This document shows, piece by piece, positions 24,668-34,882 of a stretch of DNA of 64,000 nucleotides. How positions within the stretch are numbered: position 1 is the stretch's first letter; every line of letters starts with the position of its first letter. The notes under the pieces were generated by a model, which searched no databases, was not told the origin of the DNA, and was given only the letters and a program-made list of their open reading frames with translations. The translations under genes were made by a program, and so were the position numbers. This DNA comes from an uncultured Bacilli bacterium (lineage in GTDB: Bacteria > Bacillota_I > Bacilli_A > RF39 > UBA660). Location of the stretch: contig CAKOXL010000002.1 in NCBI GenBank assembly GCA_934130105.1, positions 7,232 to 71,231 on the forward strand. The letters run 5' to 3'.

Positions 24668-25015
24668 CTAGTTACCAGCAGCGTCCCAGCAAGCACCCCA
24701 ACCAGTAGTATCACCAGTGCCACCATGTTCATCACCACTAACATTAGCAAATAAATTCATAACTAATGTTACGATAGTTACTACAAAGAAAATAGCTACG
24801 GCGTAAATTACACGTTTAATTAATTTACTAGTTGCACCTTTAATTTCTTTATCGTCACTTGACATAACAGCTTTACCTAAATCAATTGAACCCATTAATA
24901 TTAAAACAATAGGGATACCAATTTGAATTAAAGGAAAAACACCTTTTCTAATAAATTGAACTATTGGTAATAAACCATTACAAGCATCAGCCATTATTTG
25001 TGTTAAATTAGACAT
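24668..25015 (-). CDS. VirB2/TrbC-like pilin-type protein (115 aa, paralogue 1, candidate major subunit)
   Basis: Hairpin IQIGIPIVLILMGSIDLGKAVMSSDDKEIKGATSKLIKRVIYAVAIFFVVTIVTLVMNLF. The AAGGAGGA SD abuts the ORF-track ATG at 25021, so the ATG at 25015 (6-nt spacing, MSNLTQ) is the likely start. Confidence 0.65.
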   Translation of the reverse strand: MSNLTQIMADACNGLLPIVQFIRKGVFPLIQIGIPIVLILMGSIDLGKAVMSSDDKEIKGATSKLIKRVIYAVAIFFVVTIVTLVMNLFANVSGDEHGGTGDTTGWGACWDAAGN

Positions 25016-25039
25016 AAACATCCTCCTTCGTATGTACTT

Positions 25040-25068
25040 ATAATATAATAAGTTCTACATTTAGTCAA
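25040..25068 (-). promoter_or_regulatory. sigma-A-type promoter for the short VirB2-like gene
   Basis: -35 TTGACT (25068-25063), 17-nt spacer, -10 TATTAT (25045-25040). Confidence 0.65.
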
Positions 25069-25140
25069 TATAGAAAAAATATGTTTACAAAAATTGACAT
25101 AATAATAAAATTAATAAGTAAATAAGCACTTCCATTATAA

Positions 25141-25176
25141 ATAAAAAACAAAGAAAATTAATTTTATTCTTTGTTT
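25141..25176 (-). terminator. rho-independent terminator ending the Tad-like transcription unit
   Basis: AAACAAAGAA (25146-25155) / TTCTTTGTTT (25167-25176) 10-bp stem overlapping the stop codon, followed on the minus strand by TTTATTTAT. Confidence 0.7.
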
Positions 25177-26137
25177 AATAATTATTTATACCAAGTTTAC
25201 TAAGTAGGTTTGATAATACATCGGTATTATTAAGTCTCTCATCAAGTGGTGGTAATACAAAGAAAGTTTTAATACCAGCTTCATATTCAAATTCTTTAAC
25301 ATCACTTTCTGGTAAAATACTTTGTGCCACAACTATTTTTCTACCAGCAAGTTTCTCAAATATCTTACGATCCCTCAACATTAACTTATTTAATTTTATA
25401 GTAGATGGTTCTATTAAATAAAGTACATCATTACATACTTCCTCATTACCACTACTATTTAAATCAACTAAAATAACACTAAAAGCCTTCCTTTTTAATA
25501 ACTCACTAGCTAAGTTATCTTTAGTAACAGATATCATATCTTGATCGTGAAAGTATGAAAAATCTCTTTTATCAACTTCAATTGCCAAAACAGATTTACC
25601 CATATTTTTTATTTCACGTTTCAACATATAAGTTAACATAGTAGCGCCAGAATGTTCAGTAACATTTTTAATACCCAAAATATAAGTTCCAGCCTGAACT
25701 ACTTGTTGAACTCCACCATCACTAATAACTACACCACCACTATCTGATGAGCCACCATCTATTTGATGTAAATGAGCAACATCACGGTAAGTATTAGGAT
25801 TATTAAGTAAATAATTTACACCATCCAAGTTAGTAGTAAAGTTATAAATTCCCATTGAAATTAATTTTGATAAAAAGCTAGGTGCTAAACATTCAGGTGT
25901 ATCCGGTAATAAAACAATAATCTTTTCAATATCAAGTGACATTGCAAATTTTTGTAAATTACGAACGTCTTTATAATTTTTTATGGCCGTTAAATCAAGA
26001 ATCATTCTGCCAAAAAAGAAATTAGAAAACATTTCAATTAATTCATCAGCATCAAATACACCATGTACAGATTTTATTATTTCAATATCCAAATTAGAAA
26101 GTTCTGCTTGTCTTTCATTTGATATAATTACATTCAT
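25175..26137 (-). CDS. TadZ/CpaE-like protein: receiver-like N-domain plus ParA/MinD-like domain with degenerate P-loop
   Basis: The N-terminal ~125 aa have an alternating beta/alpha pattern (ILDLTAIKNY, IIVLLPD, GIYNF). In the C-domain, GIKNVTEHSGATMLTYML ... KSVLAIEVD aligns to the KGGxGKT region of MinD/CpaE but lacks the GKT lysine. Location within the Tad-like cluster. Confidence 0.5.
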   Translation of the reverse strand: MNVIISNERQAELSNLDIEIIKSVHGVFDADELIEMFSNFFFGRMILDLTAIKNYKDVRNLQKFAMSLDIEKIIVLLPDTPECLAPSFLSKLISMGIYNFTTNLDGVNYLLNNPNTYRDVAHLHQIDGGSSDSGGVVISDGGVQQVVQAGTYILGIKNVTEHSGATMLTYMLKREIKNMGKSVLAIEVDKRDFSYFHDQDMISVTKDNLASELLKRKAFSVILVDLNSSGNEEVCNDVLYLIEPSTIKLNKLMLRDRKIFEKLAGRKIVVAQSILPESDVKEFEYEAGIKTFFVLPPLDERLNNTDVLSNLLSKLGINNY

Positions 26138-26151
26138 TTAATCACCAGCCT

Positions 26152-26646
26152 TTACTCACAAGTAGGTAAACCAGAATTAGCACCAGATGAGTATATTAAT
26201 GCTGTTTCACCTTTTGTAGTAAATACATTATTCATAGCTGCTATTTCTGGAAATATCTTATTAAAAATAGGAATATCAATATCTACAAATGTTAAAACAG
26301 TATAATACGCACCTTTATATAAAGAATTATCACTTGATGTACCTGCAATATCTACTTTTTCATATTTATAGCAAAATAATCCATTATTAAGAGGAGCTTC
26401 TGTATAGCCATCTGGACAAGTCCTCTCACCTTTTTGAACGCCATAATTAGTTCTTAAAAATAAATCATCAATTTGCGTAACAGCACTGCAAGTTAATCCT
26501 TCATTCTTTTCGATAATACTCCTAATTTCATTCTTAACGCGAAAGGCTTTAGTGTAATTAACACTAAAAGCCAAATAGCAATTAACAATAATTAAAAATA
26601 TTAAAATCATTTGCATGCTTAACGCACCACCTATAGCGTCTCTCAC
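26152..26646 (-). CDS. TadE/pseudopilin-like protein with Cys-bracketed ectodomain
   Basis: GTG start with a GGTGA SD. The leader MRDAIGG is followed by a hydrophobic helix (ALSMQMILIFLIIVNCYLAF). The leader resembles that of the adjacent small pilin ORF (M-[KR]-[DE]-A-x-G). Confidence 0.5.
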   Translation of the reverse strand: MRDAIGGALSMQMILIFLIIVNCYLAFSVNYTKAFRVKNEIRSIIEKNEGLTCSAVTQIDDLFLRTNYGVQKGERTCPDGYTEAPLNNGLFCYKYEKVDIAGTSSDNSLYKGAYYTVLTFVDIDIPIFNKIFPEIAAMNNVFTTKGETALIYSSGANSGLPTCE

Positions 26647-26666
26647 ACTATCACCACTTTTCTATA

Positions 26667-26840
26667 TTAACCTTGTGCACAAGCATCAGGATTTTCTTTA
26701 CAATCAGTACCAATATTATTCCATTGACCAGTAATTGTATTTTTTATTTGTGGCCACATAAACCAGAAAAATGCAATAATTGCTCCAATTGCGATAATTG
26801 TAACAACAGTCATATTTAATTCACCGGTTGCCTCTTTCAT
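26667..26840 (-). CDS. Flp-sized pilin candidate, 57 aa (not in the ORF track)
   Basis: Codon-by-codon translation gives MKEATGELNMTVVTIIAIGAIIAFFWFMWPQIKNTITGQWNNIGTDCKENPDACAQG. AAGGAGGG SD lies 6 nt upstream, with TGGTATAAT further upstream. Short charged leader ending in Gly, one hydrophobic helix, short tail with a Cys-x6-Cys loop. Confidence 0.6.
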   Translation of the reverse strand: MKEATGELNMTVVTIIAIGAIIAFFWFMWPQIKNTITGQWNNIGTDCKENPDACAQG

Positions 26841-26870
26841 TTACATTCCCTCCTTATTTTATACATTCTT

Positions 26871-26899
26871 ATTATACCATAAATTTTAATCATTACTAT
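26871..26899 (-). promoter_or_regulatory. extended -10 promoter in front of the small pilin ORF
   Basis: TGGTATAAT (26879-26871). No good -35 (ATAGTA). Confidence 0.5.
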
Positions 26900-28431
26900 A
26901 TTTTTTTAAAAATTTTATACATTATACTGTCATCTTCATTACTATCTAAATCACTATAATATTTTGTATATATAACTTCATAATTAGAATTATTAGATAA
27001 ATATTTATACATAGGACTATAATTATCAACTAATAAGTGTGTAAATTGATATTTTTCTAAAAATAATTCTATATCCAATTTTCCTGATTCTAACTGATAT
27101 AATTCCTTTAAAATATCATACTTTTTGTTATTAGCTTTAAGAAATATTTCAGCACGACTATCACTATAAGTTTTAACCCCTAAGTATTCAGCATAATTAC
27201 ACTCTTCATAAATACAAAAAAGTCTAATATCACTAATATTTTCTTGGTTTACCATAGTGTTAACACCAGTAGCAATGCTACTAGAAAAATTAACTTTTGA
27301 ATTATTTACATGATATAAAAGTGTTAGTAATACCAAGATACATAATATTAAGAATAAAGATTTAGCTCTTTTTTTTAGCTTATCACTAGGTTCCTTGACT
27401 ACATAAAATTTATCTTGCAAATAATAAGAAATTGGATAAATAGAACCAATTATAAAAAATAAAAGACCTCTATTTGAAGAAATAGCCAAATAAGTAGTAC
27501 CAATTAATAATAAGAAATGATATATCTTAATTTCTTTTTTTATATAAATTATATATATCAAATATACTAAAAAAATAATTAAATATGTAGTAATACCAGC
27601 AAAATTATGAATGCTAGGTACCATCATCTCACCAACTAAATTATAAATCCATGAAACATTATAAGAAGTTAATACATAGGTCATTGCTTTTATACCATAT
27701 GGATTAATAAATCCAGCTATTATCATACCCAAAATAGGAACTAAAAAATCTCTTCTTTTACCACCAGTAGATACAACCTTTCCAATTTTAAATGAAAACG
27801 TATTAATAAAAAATGGTAGAAAAAAACAAAATAACATTAACCACATAGAAGCATGACAATTTATCATTATTAATGATAGTAATGGTAAAAATAATAACAC
27901 TCTTTTTTCTTTAGTTTTTTCATACTTTTCTAATATGTATAATTCTGTTAATAATAAAGATGTAGAAAATATCTGTGGACGTGATGTTAAAAAAGATAAA
28001 TCAAATAAAGTTACTATAATAGTAGTAAATAATGCTGAAAGATTTCTCTTATTATTAGTAACTAACATTAATAATTTATAAGTTATAAATACTATATAAA
28101 TATTTACTAAGTTAACAATGAAATATATACCATTATTACCAAATAAACTATAGGTTTTATAAAATAACACATCTATTAACCATTGTTGAATCACTAAATT
28201 TAGTCCTTCGTGAATAGTAAAAGGATCAATATTAGGAAATCCATGATTTAAGATGTACTTCCCATAATTTAAAATAAACCAAGTATCATCATTCAAATAA
28301 GTTGAACAAATAGCACCAAAACATATGGGAATTAATAAAAAACAAAATGCTTCCCACTTAGAAGGATGATAGTTTATAATTTTATTTTTTATTTTATTTA
28401 TTATTTTCATAATATCATTTATCACTTGCAC
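26896..28431 (-). CDS. polytopic membrane protein, GT-C-fold glycosyltransferase-like (inferred)
   Basis: 511 aa with at least 10 hydrophobic helices, an acidic motif (YLNDDTWF) just after the first helix and a ~130-aa soluble C-terminus. Overlaps the upstream oxidoreductase gene by 17 nt. Confidence 0.45.
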
Positions 28432-29977
28432 TTTCTTGATAATCCTTTTCAGTATTTACATTCCATATATTATCTTTTTTCTTTTTATTATTAATTATAT
28501 TTTTAACAGTTTCAAAAGAAGTTATCATTGAATGATCCATATTATTATATCTATGTTGGCCGTTTCTACCAACGCAATATAAATTATCAAATTTATCTAA
28601 GTATTTAATTAATTTATCAATTTCAGAATAAGTATCAAAATATGCAGGATATGCTTTTTTTACTTTTTCTCTATGATGATCTAACACATCAGCCCTGTTA
28701 ATGATTCCCATAGATACAAGTTCATTAATAGCAAATTCACTACATTCCTTATCAGACATATTCCAAAAATCATCATTTTCACTACAAAAATATTCAAGTC
28801 CTATCCATACAGTATCATCAGGATTTTTAACCATATATGGACTCCAGTTATTAAATATTTGAATTCTACCTATTTTAACATCAGATTCTTGGACATAAAT
28901 CCAACAATCAGGTACAATATTACCTAAAGTTTTAATATTAGTTTCATTTTTTAAATTTAATTTTTTAACCAATAATCCTACTGTAACAAAATCACGATAA
29001 GGAAGACCATTAGCTATTATTTGGATATTTTTAGGTACATTACCATTAATGTCATTTACTAAATCTTTAAGTGGCATAGAAGAAATAAAAATATCACCTT
29101 TTATTTCAACTTCAGTACCATTATTATCACAAACAACAGAAATAATTTTATTATCTCTTATATTTATTTTAACAACTTTATGTTTTTTTAATACTGTTCC
29201 ACCCATATTTTCTATTTCTTGACTAACATCATCCCACAACTGACCTGGTCCATATTTTGGGTAAATGAATTCTTCAATCAAGGAAGTTTCCTTCTTGCCA
29301 CCATTTATATGAAAAGTTTTCTTAAACATATCTTTTATTACTAAAGTAACAGATAGTCCCTTAACTCTTTGACTACCCCAATCAGCTGATATTTCCTTAG
29401 GATGCCTACCCCAAAGTTTCTCTGTATATCCTTCAAAAAACATACTATATAATTTTTTTCCAAAACGATTAATATAAAAATTTTCAAGTGAATCTTCTTT
29501 TTTCTTAACAACTGTACTCTTTAAATAACTAAAACCACAAGATATAGTTCTTTTAAATCCCATGTTTTTAAAAGTTTCTTTTTTCATACTAATTGGATAA
29601 TCAAAAAACTTCTTTAAATAATAAATTCTAGAAACTCTATTTCTAATTAGCATAACTTTGTCTTCTTTTTCGGGATCAGGACCATCTTTTACTAGCCTTT
29701 TTTTTCTCTTTAACTTTTTATCATCATAACTTGGCTTACCTTGAATAGATAAAAAATGTGTCCAGAAATTAATGACTTCTTGATTCTTAGAAAAAAAACG
29801 ATGACCTCCAATATCCATTCTATTTCCGTGATAATTAATAGTTCTAGAAATTCCACCGATTTCATTTGTACTTTCTAAAACTATTACATCATATTTTTTG
29901 CTTTTAGTTAATAATTCATATCCAGCTGTTAAGCCAGCTGGACCAGCACCAATAATAACTACCTTTTGTTTCTTCAT
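28415..29977 (-). CDS. FAD/NAD(P)-binding oxidoreductase (amine-oxidase / UDP-galactopyranose-mutase-like fold)
   Basis: N-terminal Rossmann motif [17 protein letters not shown] ... [14 protein letters not shown]. 520 aa. Confidence 0.75.
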
Positions 29978-30021
29978 ATTTATAACTCCATAATAAAATA
30001 TCAGTACTATAAACTACACTC

Positions 30022-30050
30022 ATTATATCATCAAATTAGCAATTTTAAAT
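30022..30050 (-). promoter_or_regulatory. candidate internal promoter (extended -10)
   Basis: TGATATAAT (30030-30022), with a T9 tract (30060-30052 on the minus strand) just upstream. Confidence 0.4.
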
Positions 30051-30082
30051 CAAAAAAAAATTGCTATAAAAACAATTCTTTT

Positions 30083-30868
30083 TTAAATATTTGTAAACAT
30101 ATAAAGCATAGCCATTAATATAAGTACCATTACACCAGCACCAGTTGCAACTAACATAATCATAGTTTGACTTTCCATATGATTTAGACGCTCTTTATAT
30201 TTTTGCTCTCTTGCTTTAGCTTGTAAATTAGAAACTGTTCTAGAAAACATCAACAATCTTTCCTGTTTATCTTCTTGTTTACCAAGACCTAAACGATATA
30301 AAAGTCTCATCATTCTCATTGAATCTCTAACTGGATAATCATTAGCAAATTCCATATAAGGATCAATTGATGAATCACCAGCATCAATCTTAGCAATCAT
30401 TTCTCTTAAACCAGGTTTAAAAATATCAGGAGCATCATCAATAGATTTAGCAAGTGCAACAGGAACAGTATAATGTTGAACTAATATTTCTAAACCCTTC
30501 AAATAGTAAGGAAGCATAATATCAATATCATGTAAATGTTTTTTATAATATTTTTTAAGTGATGTATAACTTGATTTAAATGTAATATAACCAACAACAA
30601 TAGATAACACAATATTAATTGCACTTAACTCAGTTAAAAAGATAAATAAGAAAACAACTGTAACCAAAAATCCCATTTTAAGCCTTTTATTAAATAAAAT
30701 ATTAGGATCGACCTTTTCGCCATACCTAGCAGCTACTAAAAAGTCATAATCACTTTCCTTTAGCATATAAAGTACATCTTGATTGTCTTGAATAAATTTT
30801 TTACCATTAATAGTATTATTATAAAGTAAAACACCAAATATTATTGCTCCACAAATAATTACTTCCAT
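30083..30868 (-). CDS. TadC-like platform protein (T2SS F-domain-like polytopic membrane protein)
   Basis: 261 aa with an N-terminal TM, two central TMs, a cytoplasmic helical domain and a C-terminal TM. Its start overlaps the stop of the preceding TadB-like gene. Position is downstream of the CpaF-type ATPase. Confidence 0.55.
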   Translation of the reverse strand: MEVIICGAIIFGVLLYNNTINGKKFIQDNQDVLYMLKESDYDFLVAARYGEKVDPNILFNKRLKMGFLVTVVFLFIFLTELSAINIVLSIVVGYITFKSSYTSLKKYYKKHLHDIDIMLPYYLKGLEILVQHYTVPVALAKSIDDAPDIFKPGLREMIAKIDAGDSSIDPYMEFANDYPVRDSMRMMRLLYRLGLGKQEDKQERLLMFSRTVSNLQAKAREQKYKERLNHMESQTMIMLVATGAGVMVLILMAMLYMFTNI

Positions 30869-31770
30869 TATTCAGCACCAACGTTCTCGTTATAATATTT
30901 TTCTCCTTTAAGAAGAAAATAACTATTAATAATTAAAATACCGTGTAACACAATTAACATTACAGGATTACTTAATATAGCAATATAAGTTTCACGTCCA
31001 AGTAAATATTGAACTAACATAACCATCAAATATAACATAACACCATACTTTAAAAAGGATTTATGGAAATTAGCTCTATCTATACGGTCACGATATACAC
31101 TTTCAACCAACATATCTATATCAAGTTGCATGTTTTCTAAAGATTCTCCAGAATCTCTTGCACCTTCTTTAGTTATCTGTAAAAATAGTTGATGCATATT
31201 TTTAACAATATAATAAGGATATTTTTCACTCATAAATTGAACTGATTCATCAATAGAACCATTTTGATATGCAAGTGAAATCATCATATTAACATCAGAT
31301 AACACAGGATCTTCTAATACACCACTTGCTGCTACCCCTTCAAGGGATTTAACAAAACTCTGAGTAGTTGCAAATTCCATTATAGTATTTGTTGTATATA
31401 CTTGAATCTGTTCAAATAAAAATTCACTATATACTCTTTTACATCTCAAAAAAGCCAAATAAGGAATACATGCATTAGCTATTAAAATATAAATTATTGA
31501 AATAAATAAGTTATAAAAATACAAGTAAGAAATTACACCGGCAAAAATAGTAAAAACTATAACTTGAATTATATATTGCTTAGGAGTATATTCTTGACCT
31601 AATTCTTTAGTCTTCTCTCTTACAACTTTAAAAGAGTAAGGAGCAAACTTATCATAAATTACGCCAGCTTGTTCAGTGATAAATTTATAAACATTCTGGC
31701 CACGATATCGTCTATATATGAAAACAAATAAGGCGATTAATAATATTATAACTAATTCCATTTTCATCAC
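30868..31770 (-). CDS. TadB-like platform protein (T2SS F-domain-like polytopic membrane protein)
   Basis: 300 aa with the same TM/cytoplasmic-domain/TM layout as its neighbour. 10-nt gap after the ATPase gene. Confidence 0.55.
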   Translation of the reverse strand: MMKMELVIILLIALFVFIYRRYRGQNVYKFITEQAGVIYDKFAPYSFKVVREKTKELGQEYTPKQYIIQVIVFTIFAGVISYLYFYNLFISIIYILIANACIPYLAFLRCKRVYSEFLFEQIQVYTTNTIMEFATTQSFVKSLEGVAASGVLEDPVLSDVNMMISLAYQNGSIDESVQFMSEKYPYYIVKNMHQLFLQITKEGARDSGESLENMQLDIDMLVESVYRDRIDRANFHKSFLKYGVMLYLMVMLVQYLLGRETYIAILSNPVMLIVLHGILIINSYFLLKGEKYYNENVGAE

Positions 31771-31780
31771 TCCCTTACTA

Positions 31781-33559
31781 TTAATTTGTTTGATTTATAT
31801 TTGTATCAAATTGAAAAAACTTAGGTGCTCCAGTATTATCATTAGTAACACCAACCTGATTATTATCCAATTTAGATGAAAGTAAAAAATCAGAGTTAGT
31901 ATTTATATTAGGATTAGTAGTATTTTCTATGTTTACATCAGCTGGTTTAAAAACTAATTCATTTGATTCAGCTCCAACCGGAATATCTGGTCTTGGTATA
32001 GTAAATATATCATTATTACTTTGAGAAGTATTAACATTATTAGTTTGATTATTTACATTAGTAAAAATATTATCAATATCAACTAAATTAGGATTAATAT
32101 TATTACTATTATTTATAACATCTTGATTGCTAGAAAAATTAGGATTAACATTTACAGTATTGTCTAAATTATTAATTGGCATATTAGTATTTAAAGTATT
32201 ATTAACATTATTAATAGTACTAACACTTTCTACACCATTAAAATTTGGAATATTACTATTAGTGAAAATATCAACTGGTCTATTAATAGTATCTACGCTA
32301 TCATTAATATCAACAGCTTTTACTTCTTGATTAGAATTATTAGTATTAATATCAGTACCTATATTAATATTAGTATTATCAATACTTCCACTAGTATTAA
32401 CAGTAGTATCAATAGTATTAACTTTCTCTAAATTAGAGTTATTATTTAAGTCTACCTCTTCTTTATTAATATCATTAATTGAAATACCACTATCACTAGT
32501 ATCAGTATCATCTATATTACTCTCTATATCAATATTTTGTCCAAGTAGATAATCAATCAAATGCTGACTAGGTTTTTTCTTTTCTATCTTTCCAATCATG
32601 TTTTTCTGATAAATAACATTATATACCGGTTTATTAGTCTCTTCATCTATATAAAACTCCGTGATTTCATCTATTTCACGATGAAATTTACCATATTTTC
32701 TACTATAATATGCCTTAATATGAACACCAATTTGAATATAACGATAAATAGTACTTAAGAACTGATCAACATCCAAATCTGTTTCCATAAGTGAATATAG
32801 ACGATGTGGAATAGCACTAGCTTTATCAGAGTGAATAGTAGATAAAATATTATGTCCTGATGAAATTGAGTTACGAACAGCAGTAACGGCTTCTGCACTA
32901 CGAACCTCTGATAACAATATCCATTTAGGATTTTGTCTCATACAAGTAACAAGTACATCAGAATATGATGCTATATTATTAGTCTTCATAGCAACAATAT
33001 CACGATGAGGATAAATTTTATCTAAGTGAAGTTCCAAAGTATCCTCAATCGTAATAATTTTTTCATTTTCTTTAGTATGACTAGCTAAATATTTAACAAA
33101 CTCAGTTTTACCACTACCAGTTTCACCACATACCATGATATTACAGTGCCCATGAACACATTTTATCAAAAAATCATGTATATCTTTAGTAATATAATCT
33201 TCTTTTAATAAATTTTCTTCTTTTAGACGAATCTTAGCTGGAGTCTTACGAATAACTAACGCGATACCATTGGTAGCAATTGATTCATGGACAAAGTTAA
33301 GACGTAATTCAGGACTCTCAGCATCCAAAAAGGGACTGGCATTATTGAATGTAGTACCCATTACATTTGAACACTGAAAGGCAAGTTTTTCAACCACTGA
33401 ATTATTTATTTTTGGATTATCAACTCGGTAAGAGCCTTTTTCTAATGAACGAAGCCAGATTTGGCCATTATTAGTATAAGAAATATCAGTAATATCATCA
33501 TTATCAATATATTCTTTAAATGCCCCAAAATCAAGTTGTTCAAACATACTATCTTTCAT
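31781..33559 (-). CDS. CpaF/TadA (VirB11-superfamily) secretion ATPase with ~230-aa Asn-rich C-terminal tail
   Basis: Walker A VCGETGSGKTEF, Asp box IITIEDTLEL, Walker B-like RQNPKWILLSEVR, His box SGHNILSTIHSD. The tail is N/T/I/D low complexity. Confidence 0.9.
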   Translation of the reverse strand: MKDSMFEQLDFGAFKEYIDNDDITDISYTNNGQIWLRSLEKGSYRVDNPKINNSVVEKLAFQCSNVMGTTFNNASPFLDAESPELRLNFVHESIATNGIALVIRKTPAKIRLKEENLLKEDYITKDIHDFLIKCVHGHCNIMVCGETGSGKTEFVKYLASHTKENEKIITIEDTLELHLDKIYPHRDIVAMKTNNIASYSDVLVTCMRQNPKWILLSEVRSAEAVTAVRNSISSGHNILSTIHSDKASAIPHRLYSLMETDLDVDQFLSTIYRYIQIGVHIKAYYSRKYGKFHREIDEITEFYIDEETNKPVYNVIYQKNMIGKIEKKKPSQHLIDYLLGQNIDIESNIDDTDTSDSGISINDINKEEVDLNNNSNLEKVNTIDTTVNTSGSIDNTNINIGTDINTNNSNQEVKAVDINDSVDTINRPVDIFTNSNIPNFNGVESVSTINNVNNTLNTNMPINNLDNTVNVNPNFSSNQDVINNSNNINPNLVDIDNIFTNVNNQTNNVNTSQSNNDIFTIPRPDIPVGAESNELVFKPADVNIENTTNPNINTNSDFLLSSKLDNNQVGVTNDNTGAPKFFQFDTNINQTN

Positions 33560-33585
33560 GACAATTCCCCTTTTTATTCTTTTTT

Positions 33586-34440
33586 CTATTGATTTGGATT
33601 TATAGTAATTGTTCCATCAGGATTTTCAGTAATACTAGCATCCCAAACAGTAACTTTATTAATAAATTCTTTAAGTACTTCACTAGATATAGCTACTTCA
33701 CCAGGATTTTCTTTTAAAGATTCAGCAGTAGGTACAGGAATAAGTGTTACTTCATATGTTCTTAAATACATTGCTTTACGAAGTAAGATATGATACTCTT
33801 CAGGTACTGCAAATATTATTTGAGATGGTACTTTAACATCTTCTAAGTTTTCAAATACACTATCACCATTAGCATCAACTACGTCAATTACTTTAACATT
33901 TTCAAGTAATTTACCTACCATAATTTTATCTTTTGTATCACTGGTCATATTGTCTTCATCTATTTTATTTACAGCTTTTAAGTAAATATCAATATAATTG
34001 CCTGGATAAATCTTATTACCATATGTAGTAGTTGTATTAACACTCATATTAACAAGTACATACCCTTCAGGATAATCATAAATGATTGAATCTGGTAAAT
34101 CGCTCTTAGATACTACGATACTACCATAAAATAAACTTCCTTGAGGAATAATTGTATCTGCTCTTACATATTTTCCTACTATTTTAGAAACATCAGTAAT
34201 AGCATTACCCTTTAACATTGCAGGTGGTACTTCAATACTACCTATCATATCACTAGTTATCTTTGTCTTTGGATTAATTGTTGTTGTTGCATATGGAACT
34301 GTAATTGGATTAATTGCTTTTTTAATACGATAATTATATCCAGCATATAACACAATTATAGCTACTACTACACCAACAAAAGTTACAGTATTTTTGTTTG
34401 TTAAAAACTTTTTAACTGTTATGGAAAAATTTCCTTTCAT
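33586..34440 (-). CDS. CpaB/RcpC-like Flp pilus assembly protein (TM + SAF-like domain)
   Basis: N-terminal TM (VTFVGVVVAIIVLYAGY), then VPYATTTINPKTKITSDMIGSIEVPPAML...VGKYVRADTIIPQGSLF, which resembles a SAF domain. Lies immediately upstream of the ATPase. Confidence 0.55.
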   Translation of the reverse strand: MKGNFSITVKKFLTNKNTVTFVGVVVAIIVLYAGYNYRIKKAINPITVPYATTTINPKTKITSDMIGSIEVPPAMLKGNAITDVSKIVGKYVRADTIIPQGSLFYGSIVVSKSDLPDSIIYDYPEGYVLVNMSVNTTTTYGNKIYPGNYIDIYLKAVNKIDEDNMTSDTKDKIMVGKLLENVKVIDVVDANGDSVFENLEDVKVPSQIIFAVPEEYHILLRKAMYLRTYEVTLIPVPTAESLKENPGEVAISSEVLKEFINKVTVWDASITENPDGTITINPNQ

Positions 34441-34453
34441 AAAATCACCCTTT

Positions 34454-34882
34454 CTATTCAGTTACGCTTTGTAAAAGCCTATCTTCTTCATATTTAGTTT
34501 CTAATATTGCATCAATTTTTTGAGTAATATCAAAATTATCACCAGCAAAAGTAGCAACAGTACTAGAGCCAATCTGTATACTTACTTTTGGCGGAGTCTC
34601 ATTCAAATCTATCACTTTTACATGATAATTACGATCTTGGTTAACGTTTGCAGCAAATCTTCTTACAAAGCTTTCTAAGAACTTCTCACGATCCATTCTA
34701 ATAACACCTGTTGTTCTATAATAAGAAGTATCAACAGCATCTATCATTGCTGCTTCGGTTGTTTCTTCTAGTAAATAATAATCAAGTTCACTACCAGATT
34801 GATAATTTTGAATTATATTTACGGCTGCCAGTGTTAATACACCAAGTATAATAATACCTGTTATCATCATTCCTCTACTCAT
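34454..34882 (-). CDS. pseudopilin-like protein (short leader-Gly-hydrophobic helix, 142 aa)
   Basis: MSRGMMITGIIILGVLTLAAVNIIQNY N-terminus. Location between the adhesin-like and CpaB-like genes. Confidence 0.4.
   Translation of the reverse strand: MSRGMMITGIIILGVLTLAAVNIIQNYQSGSELDYYLLEETTEAAMIDAVDTSYYRTTGVIRMDREKFLESFVRRFAANVNQDRNYHVKVIDLNETPPKVSIQIGSSTVATFAGDNFDITQKIDAILETKYEEDRLLQSVTE

Follow-up and report, generated by a model that had tools for sequence, protein, structure and literature searches.

A UDP-galactopyranose mutase-like flavoenzyme and an uncatalogued GT-C-fold glycosyltransferase encoded beside the pilin gene of a Tad-like locus in an uncultured gut Bacilli bacterium

The region described here (the window) is a stretch of 64,000 nucleotides from an uncultured Bacilli bacterium, corresponding to positions 7232-71231 of contig C2 of the source genome, a 1.2-Mb assembly that is 70.7% complete, has a G+C content of roughly 27% and has uncultured gut 'Bacilli/Tenericutes' metagenome-assembled genomes (MAGs) as its relatives. 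Every gene between about 17.9 kb and 38.7 kb of the window is encoded on the minus strand. Two of them, located between a TadC-like gene and the pilin gene of a Tad-like locus, are the subject of this analysis: a 520-aa flavoenzyme of the NCBIfam PRK07208 group (28415..29977, minus strand), which resembles UDP-galactopyranose mutase (UGM) in hidden Markov model (HMM) matches, fold and invariant residues, and a 511-aa (probably 504-aa) GT-C-fold membrane glycosyltransferase of an uncatalogued family (26896..28431, minus strand), recognized by AlphaFold2 (AF2) modelling and Foldseek. Both open reading frames (ORFs) lie where the initial annotation had placed them, the GT-C ORF ending 55 nt before a 57-aa pilin ORF. 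The 17-nt overlap that this annotation reported between the two is found only if the GT-C gene starts at GTG 28431. The closest GT-C homologues (P0001 and L008, 504 aa) begin at the residue equivalent to Met8, which is why the protein probably starts at ATG 28410 and has a length of 504 aa, in which case the overlap becomes a 4-nt gap after the TGA of the flavoenzyme gene. With more than 356 homologues for the 511-aa protein, more than 8000 for the 520-aa protein and a PRK07208 match for the latter, neither ORF is a chance ORF, judging from these sequence comparisons.

The pair is embedded in a Tad-like unit. Upstream are encoded a 1007-aa protein, a DUF5411 protein, a CpaB/RcpC-like protein, a TadA/VirB11-type ATPase with an Asn-rich tail and two platform-like proteins. 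The DUF5411, CpaB/RcpC-like and ATPase genes form the core of the Tad-like machine (31781..34882, minus strand) and were identified by Pfam (T2SSE, 5.6e-26; RcpC, 4e-06; DUF5411, 3.8e-48) and NCBIfam (TadA-family and CpaB). The C-terminal tail of the ATPase (31781-33559) is roughly 250 aa long, Asn-rich and of low complexity, and is lacking in the relatives encoded in L001 and L005 (456-467 aa). The two TadB/TadC-like platform genes (300 aa and 261 aa; 30083..31770, minus strand) lie directly upstream of the cassette and keep their position after the ATPase in all related loci, although neither protein has a Pfam or NCBIfam HMM match. A 105-nt spacer (29978..30082, minus strand) separates the TadC-like gene from the flavoenzyme gene and contains a promoter-like site with an extended -10 element (TTTAAA-16-TGaTATAAT, 30049-30022). 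Downstream of the pair are encoded the 57-aa pilin-like protein (26667..26840, minus strand), a candidate acceptor whose N-terminus MKEATGELNMTVV is invariant and whose gene comes with a TATAAT of its own and with a strong AAGGAGG ribosome site; a 164-aa pseudopilin-like single-pass protein (26152..26646, minus strand), an alternative candidate acceptor that adjoins the pilin and is conserved in L005, L008, L011 and L013; and a 320-aa TadZ/CpaE-like protein (25175..26137, minus strand), which closes the Tad-like unit, is kept in related loci as cluster 15 and has no Pfam HMM match. A type IV secretion half follows, with T4SS-pilin-like hairpins, TrbL/VirB6 and VirB4. In the promoter scan, promoter-like sites were not commoner than in shuffled sequence, so that the spacer site is a lead only, and no terminator-like site was found in positions 25000-31000 of the window.

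The composite Tad-like and type IV secretion locus (17984-38666), for which DUF5411 served as marker, is present in 100 of 121 genomes sampled from the bacterial family of the window and has the appearance of a core machine encoded on the chromosome of these gut Bacilli with small genomes, and not of a mobile element. No A24 prepilin peptidase is encoded within the Tad-like locus of the window. The single one found in the assembly is of PilD type (contig C8:30188-30511, L093) and is encoded beside a PilC-like gene; these two genes belong to a separate type IV pilus or competence system.

The 511-aa protein could not be placed in any known family at the sequence level. Indeed, single-sequence searches of Pfam, NCBIfam and PDB and a search of PDB with a 52-sequence profile all failed to return a match, and a Pfam scan of the 52 family members gave only sub-threshold DUF6541 and PMT_2 matches in some of them. 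An AF2 model built on the alignment of these 52 sequences is confident (predicted local distance difference test, pLDDT, 91.7; predicted template-modelling score, pTM, 0.90) and displays about 13 membrane helices followed by a C-terminal alpha/beta domain (residues roughly 380-511, roughly 130 aa). Compared with PDB by Foldseek, the model has GT-C enzymes exclusively among its top 34 matches, down to an E-value of 0.42, with 22 matches at E<=1e-3. The best are yeast, human, archaeal and bacterial STT3/AglB/PglB (E 1e-6 to 1e-4, TMq 0.5-0.57), followed by ALG12/ALG9, DPY19, AftD, ArnT, AftB/AftA and Emb. The layout that had been read from the letters alone (at least 10 transmembrane helices, an acidic motif after the first helix and a soluble C-terminal domain) is thus recovered in the model, and the comparison with GT-C structures that had been proposed as a check agrees with it, no HMM having assigned the protein to another family.

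The acidic motif YLNDDTWF corresponds to residues 45-52, and Asp49 (N47-D48-D49-T50, directly after the first transmembrane helix, TM1) is invariant in the 52 homologues, together with 22 other residues. The N-terminus before TM1 is Lys-rich, which would place outer loop 1 outside the cell; Asp49 is hence a candidate catalytic residue, as far as conservation and predicted topology indicate. The confident model, the GT-C-only fold matches and the invariant Asp49 identify the 511-aa protein, at the level of its modelled fold, as a GT-C-fold glycosyltransferase of an uncatalogued family, for which transferase chemistry would be expected. This family is large: an exhaustive profile search collected 1,459 clusters at 50% identity with E<=1e-30 and 8,670 with E<=1e-10. 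Two closer assignments were ruled out. The protein does not belong to GT66, as it has neither a WWDxG motif, nor sequence similarity to STT3, nor a Pfam STT3 match; a place in the TfpW type is likewise excluded, since the outer domain is of alpha/beta type (roughly 130 aa) and not TPR, although the protein shares with TfpW the adjacency of its gene to a pilin gene. Single stops were observed in the GT-C genes of G031, G024 and G104.

The 520-aa protein matches the NCBIfam model PRK07208.1-5 with an E-value of 1.9e-239, but this model carries only the name 'hypothetical protein' and a literature search for PRK07208 found nothing. Pfam detects Amino_oxidase and NAD_binding_8 Rossmann domains only. 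The best PDB sequence matches, with E-values from 2.5e-14 to 1e-11, are the eukaryote-type UGMs of T. cruzi and A. fumigatus, and bacterial UGMs match solely over query residues 164-198, a stretch that falls in the helical uridine-binding domain of UGM (PMC7662398). In Foldseek, the top 34 matches of the AF2 model (pLDDT 88.8) are all UGMs, with an E-value of 2.6e-30 and template-modelling scores of 0.74/0.82 that indicate the three-domain UGM fold; protoporphyrinogen oxidases trail them by six orders of magnitude. HMMER alignment to 4DSG and 4U8K pairs the flavin His loop DIGGHRFFS with DLGGHVIFS. In the numbering of the A. fumigatus enzyme (AfUGM), anchored on the mutant names in PDB titles (H63A, F66A, R182K, R327K), the GGH loop of the flavoenzyme corresponds to H63, R204 and R371 to the substrate-phosphate arginines R182 and R327, and Y443, Y477 and N479 to Y419, Y453 and N457. 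A replacement of R182 by Glu was considered and rejected, since numbering via H63, F66, N163 and W167 puts R182 opposite the invariant R204. Invariant in 41 flavoenzyme homologues are G57, G58 and H59, F180, F181, Y184, T185 and W189, R204, R371, Y443, Y477 and N479.

The 520-aa protein is accordingly a candidate UGM-type mutase, by sequence and by modelled fold. An enzyme of the sugar-donor pathway had indeed been predicted at this position, but as a DprE1-like oxidoreductase, and this second part is not retained. DprE1 has a VAO-type FAD fold, unlike the Rossmann-type UGM. The Pfam domains of the flavoenzyme are Rossmann domains only and its fold matches those of UGM and protoporphyrinogen oxidase, which rules out a DprE1-type oxidase. 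Given the UGM homology, the expected chemistry would be the pyranose-to-furanose ring contraction of a UDP-sugar and not the oxidation of a lipid-linked ribose. Other copies of this enzyme were also encountered. A shorter homologue (426 aa, 24% identical) is encoded among GT2/GT4 genes on contig C13 of the window's genome (G000, C13:14000-32000, L094); second copies with two or three in-frame stops, which are decaying paralogues, are present in G035 (C1:384270-385790) and G097 (C7:13005-14531); and the primary copies of G091 and G102 contain single stops.

The two genes recur together. Among 80 species-level loci with GT-C relatives, taken by similarity and with their ORFs clustered, 53 have the flavoenzyme and GT-C genes directly next to each other. 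In the 121 family genomes, the flavoenzyme occurs in 13, the close GT-C subfamily in 13 and both in 11 (hypergeometric P=4.6e-12), the two genes being adjacent in 8. These results support the view, already held in the initial annotation, that the flavoenzyme and the GT-C protein form a functional pair, and they delimit a conserved cassette. A gene of the GtrA family lies beside the pair in 10/80 loci, in Clostridia (Pfam E-value 5e-23 for a representative), which fits a polyprenyl-phosphate-sugar route, as such a route predicts GtrA neighbours. One of these arrangements, with GtrA, flavoenzyme and GT-C in this order, occurs in an isolate, Desulfitobacterium sp. Sab5 (L058). In the window's genome, possible donor genes are encoded on contig C13, where a 314-aa GtrB-like GT2 protein with two C-terminal membrane helices neighbours an Alg13-GtrA fusion. 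This part of the contig (C13:14000-32000) is a wall-polysaccharide cluster that also encodes an Alg14-like protein, with a sortase and a SpaA-type pilin gene in mid-cluster.

Some of the neighbouring genes call to mind another donor pathway, in which the flavoenzyme would be a true oxidoreductase acting on a polyprenyl-phosphate pentofuranose, as a functional analogue of DprE1 with a short-chain dehydrogenase/reductase (SDR) as its DprE2-like partner, and the sugar transferred by the GT-C protein would be arabinofuranose or a pentose related to it, by analogy with the pathways of TfpW and of mycobacteria. An SDR gene is located upstream of the flavoenzyme gene, directly or with only GtrA between them, in L049, L075, L079 and L081, and a HAD phosphatase gene precedes GtrA in L080. 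In a Christensenellaceae MAG (L065:5189-8335), a HAD-phosphatase-GtrA fusion and a UbiA-family prenyltransferase precede the pair; both are parts of the polyprenyl-phosphate pentofuranose route derived from phosphoribosyl pyrophosphate (PRPP), in which polyprenyl-phosphate ribofuranose is formed (PMC11127046). This pathway is nevertheless improbable for the cassette: no variation is seen in the UGM-specific GGH loop, in either arginine or in the uridine-site motif, the best structural matches are UGMs and not oxidases, and UbiA was found in only 1/80 loci. As a donor route for the window the PRPP/UbiA pathway was rejected, no UbiA or PPPRS gene being present in its genome as assembled.

The position of the cassette with respect to pilus genes was compared across loci. 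The order TadC-like gene, flavoenzyme, GT-C and pilin is found in the window and in L008, a Hadza-gut contig (90% identity), while in L005 (61% identity), L011 (63%) and L013 (51%) the GT-C gene alone occupies the slot between the TadC-like gene and the pilin. The GT-C gene, and not the pair, is therefore the older resident of the slot, so that the initial description of a pair interrupting a pilus-specific gene order applies to the flavoenzyme gene only. This fixed slot between platform genes and pilin could also suit a GT-C-fold protein that has lost transferase activity and serves in the structure or assembly of the pilus machine. Such a role is very improbable, as even distant homologues share without exception Asp49 of loop 1 and 22 other residues, the gene is closely associated with those of a sugar-donor enzyme and of GtrA, and it is absent from most genomes with the pilus locus.

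In other Bacilli MAGs, the cassette is located after the TadZ-like gene, between the Tad and type IV secretion halves, before the whole locus or directly before T4SS-pilin-like genes. In Clostridia, the neighbours form canonical Tad loci, with TadE, CpaB, CpaE, TadA, TadB/C, DUF192 and TadG identified by Pfam: in Christensenellaceae the cassette is encoded between the Tad core and the TadG genes, in Anaerovoracaceae it heads an operon and is followed by a prepilin peptidase and Flp, and in Faecousia it comes after a TadE-like protein and an A24 peptidase. A prepilin peptidase of the A24 family is encoded at most 10 kb from the cassette in 8 loci, and canonical Flp pilins (GQGMVEYGLII) about 1 kb from the GT-C gene in L084, L087 and L043. 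At least seven Tad-linked gene orders were counted across Bacilli and Clostridia, and in the family tree the Tad-linked GT-C members are spread among many clades. Two or more Tad core families are encoded within 10 kb in 24/80 loci and in 19 of the 44 fully flanked loci; Tad or type IV secretion genes occur near the cassette in 27/44. The recurrence of the cassette at Tad loci, for which a co-occurrence analysis had been proposed, is thereby observed, and the 19/44 compare with about 3% estimated for a random position in a genome so small (binomial P about 1e-17).

Taken together, the folds of the two proteins, the conservation of catalytic-type residues, the pairing of the genes and their recurrent neighbourhood point to an accessory module that would add a furanose sugar, via a polyprenyl-phosphate donor, onto Tad-like pilus subunits, an explanation that is proposed tentatively and at somewhat below even probability. 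In such a pathway, the 520-aa flavoenzyme would convert a UDP-pyranose, most simply UDP-galactose, to its furanose form in the cytoplasm, as its fold and active-site residues suggest. A GtrB-type GT2 enzyme encoded elsewhere would load the sugar on undecaprenyl phosphate and a GtrA-type protein would flip it, the contig C13 genes being candidates for both steps. The GT-C enzyme would then transfer the sugar at the outer face of the membrane, presumably using Asp49. Going by gene linkage, the most likely acceptors would be the Tad-like pilus subunits, either the 57-aa pilin or the neighbouring pseudopilin-like protein.

Several observations weigh against pilus subunits as acceptors. The Tad-linkage counts were obtained on loci chosen by similarity, with no correction for shared ancestry, and 47/80 loci lack any Tad gene within 10 kb. 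Of the 121 genomes from the window's bacterial family, 100 have the pilus locus and only 13 the close GT-C subfamily, which just 3 of these 13 carry within 10 kb of the pilus locus, even if this is still more than the 3% expected (P=0.006). A genome of the same genus, G112 (95% complete), lacks both cassette genes yet encodes a very similar pilin. In L012 and L014-L018, GT-C members are encoded between ftsH and dusB (e.g. L016:7808-12541), and in L029, L030, L032, L037 and L044 they lie beside O-antigen-ligase-like, GT2 and rhamnose-synthesis (RmlA/RmlCD) genes. As to the donor, no GT2 polyprenyl-phosphate sugar synthase is encoded inside any cassette of the 80 loci, and the GT2/GtrA pair of contig C13 could serve the five other GT-C enzymes of the window's genome, namely three PMT_2 and two YfhO proteins (contigs C7, C10, C14, C18 and C19). 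As to the acceptor, the Ser/Thr content of pilin tails is the same with or without the GT-C gene (P=0.98; 28 pilins) and the window's pilin (…NNIGT…) has no N-x-S/T sequon. The unlinked carriers, G112 and the ftsH/dusB and rhamnose-gene loci show that the GT-C family is not pilus-specific and that the cassette is accessory and not a part of the machine. The ftsH/dusB proteins are the closest paralogues of the window's GT-C outside the Tad clade and are encoded alone, without flavoenzyme. In addition, the presence of at least six GT-C enzymes in a 1.2-Mb assembly represents a heavy investment in extracytoplasmic glycosylation for such a small genome.

Much of this could be explained if the cassette added a furanose to a cell-envelope glycopolymer (lipoteichoic or wall teichoic acid, or a rhamnose polysaccharide) or to many surface proteins, after the manner of the YfhO/GtlB/GtrC three-component systems, its site in the pilus operon being an insertion into a tolerant, co-expressed surface locus. 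Most GT-C members are indeed outside Tad loci, 10 of the 13 close GT-C genes of the family are unlinked to the pilus locus, cassettes abut polysaccharide genes in the five loci listed above, the genome's own polysaccharide cluster encodes the shorter flavoenzyme homologue and the same type of pilin exists without cassette in G112. This alternative is the main competitor of the pilus explanation and only somewhat less probable. It does not account for Tad genes near the cassette in 19/44 loci, far above random expectation, in many gene orders and in two classes, nor for the prepilin peptidase and Flp genes that neighbour the cassette in several Clostridia, and in the clade of the window the GT-C gene is kept directly before the pilin even without the flavoenzyme.

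For modification of pilus subunits, pilin sequences were also compared, in a set of 28 of which 12 came from genomes with the close GT-C gene and 16 from genomes without it; in 40 extra loci fetched (L100-L139), pilins were not found by pattern in 16. The pilins fall into two styles, short (50-58 aa) with Cys-free Asn/Ser/Thr tails and long (61-93 aa) with 2-6 Cys in the tail. Those of GT-C-bearing genomes are 50-58 aa long (one of 70) and mostly Cys-free (9/12), whereas those of genomes without GT-C are longer and Cys-rich (13/16). The association between GT-C presence and pilin style (P=0.006 in a Fisher test for Cys and P=3e-4 in a Mann-Whitney test for length) is confounded by phylogeny. 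Several pilins encoded in GT-C-bearing genomes contain the motif QWxN[IV][ST]; however, an N-glycosylation signal was discarded, since the 7/12 tails with a sequon are about at chance level for Asn/Ser/Thr-rich tails. With no Ser/Thr enrichment and chance-level sequons, sequence alone therefore indicates no particular acceptor residue.

The nearest described analogue of the window's GT-C protein is TfpW, a pilin-adjacent GT-C enzyme of P. aeruginosa/paraeruginosa group IV (pilA-tfpW) with a DDX motif in periplasmic loop 1, which adds D-arabinofuranose from a polyprenyl-phosphate donor by a pathway that includes a GtrA-like protein (bioRxiv 10.1101/2020.04.19.049825). Compared by described features, both are membrane GT-C proteins encoded beside a pilin gene and both have an acidic motif in outer loop 1, but TfpW has 646 aa and a C-terminal TPR domain and the window's protein about 504 aa and a small alpha/beta outer domain. 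TfpW acts on Gram-negative type IVa pili with a donor made from PRPP via DprE1/DprE2, whereas the window's protein belongs to a Gram-positive Tad-like system and has a UGM-type mutase as partner. Of the Pseudomonas enzymes invoked as GT-C analogues by the initial annotation, TfpW is thus a fair comparison; TfpO/PilO is not, being an O-antigen-ligase-type transferase and not a GT-C enzyme.

The general logic of the cassette also resembles that of three-component systems such as GtrA/GtrB/GtrC, CsbB/GtcA/YfhO and GtlA/GtlB (PMC11194591, PMC11127046), with cytoplasmic sugar activation, a GtrA-type flippase and a GT-C enzyme on the outer face. These systems attach pyranose sugars to O-antigen or teichoic acids and have a GT2 gene in or near the operon; in contrast, the cassette includes a mutase and no GT2 and has a pilus-locus neighbourhood, and of the three components the window encodes the GT-C enzyme only. 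In mycobacteria, the Rv3789(GtrA)-dprE1-dprE2-aftA-embCAB cluster likewise encodes a GtrA-like protein, a donor flavoenzyme and GT-C furanosyltransferases side by side (PMC11194591). The likeness is one of gene-neighbourhood logic, as the mycobacterial flavoenzyme has another fold and chemistry and the acceptor is arabinogalactan or lipoarabinomannan.

Structurally, AglB/PglB (GT66) gave the best Foldseek E-values, about 1e-6. Archaeal AglB N-glycosylates pilins and archaellins, which are type IV filament subunits, and Tad systems are thought to derive from archaea. Unlike these enzymes, the window's GT-C protein has no visible WWDxG and no sequence similarity to them, its family shows no detectable sequence similarity to any solved GT-C, and the window's pilin lacks a sequon. 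As for the flavoenzyme, it shares with the eukaryote-type UGMs of T. cruzi (4DSG/4DSH) and A. fumigatus (3UTE/3UKH) the three-domain fold, the His loop, both arginines and the sugar-site Tyr and Asn residues, but with only about 20% identity, and it belongs to a bacterial family (PRK07208). Known bacterial Glf enzymes are shorter, of a roughly 380-aa type. No glycan is seen in the Caulobacter Tad pilus structure (PMC10710030). The literature search found no paper describing a glycosyltransferase tied to Tad pili, which agrees with the earlier remark that an in-operon GT-C enzyme linked to such pili would be unusual. Lipid-linked extracytoplasmic glycosylation tied to a pilin gene is known in principle; the proposed system would be a variant of it, set apart by the family of its GT-C protein, by a donor enzyme of mutase type, by its setting in a Gram-positive Tad-like machine and by the lack of an in-cassette GT2.

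Flp/Tad pili are widespread adhesion and colonisation organelles, and the literature search turned up no paper in which an enzyme that glycosylates them is defined. The two-gene cassette, often accompanied by GtrA, is a concrete and testable candidate that recurs beside Tad genes across Firmicutes, and it brings together two protein families left unnamed by databases, a GT-C family of more than 1,400 clusters and the PRK07208 flavoenzymes, which look like bacterial versions of eukaryote-type UGM. The pilus machine can do without the cassette, which differs from one species to another, a pattern consistent with a role in the surface coat, for example in masking, in stability or in the tuning of adhesion. 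A stronger version of the proposal, unlikely though worth stating, is that the GT-C family is a protein glycosyltransferase dedicated to Gram-positive Tad-type (type IVc) pilus subunits, with a UGM-like partner that would allow the pilin to be coated with a furanose such as galactofuranose. If so, no system for Tad pilin glycosylation would have been defined before this one, and it would be a bacterial counterpart of the glycosylation of archaeal pilins. As a strain-variable accessory, it would alter the surface of the pilus, for example against phages or the immunity of the host. If the acceptor were instead a wall polymer, the cassette would still represent a new route by which abundant, uncultured gut bacteria decorate Gram-positive envelopes with furanose sugars.

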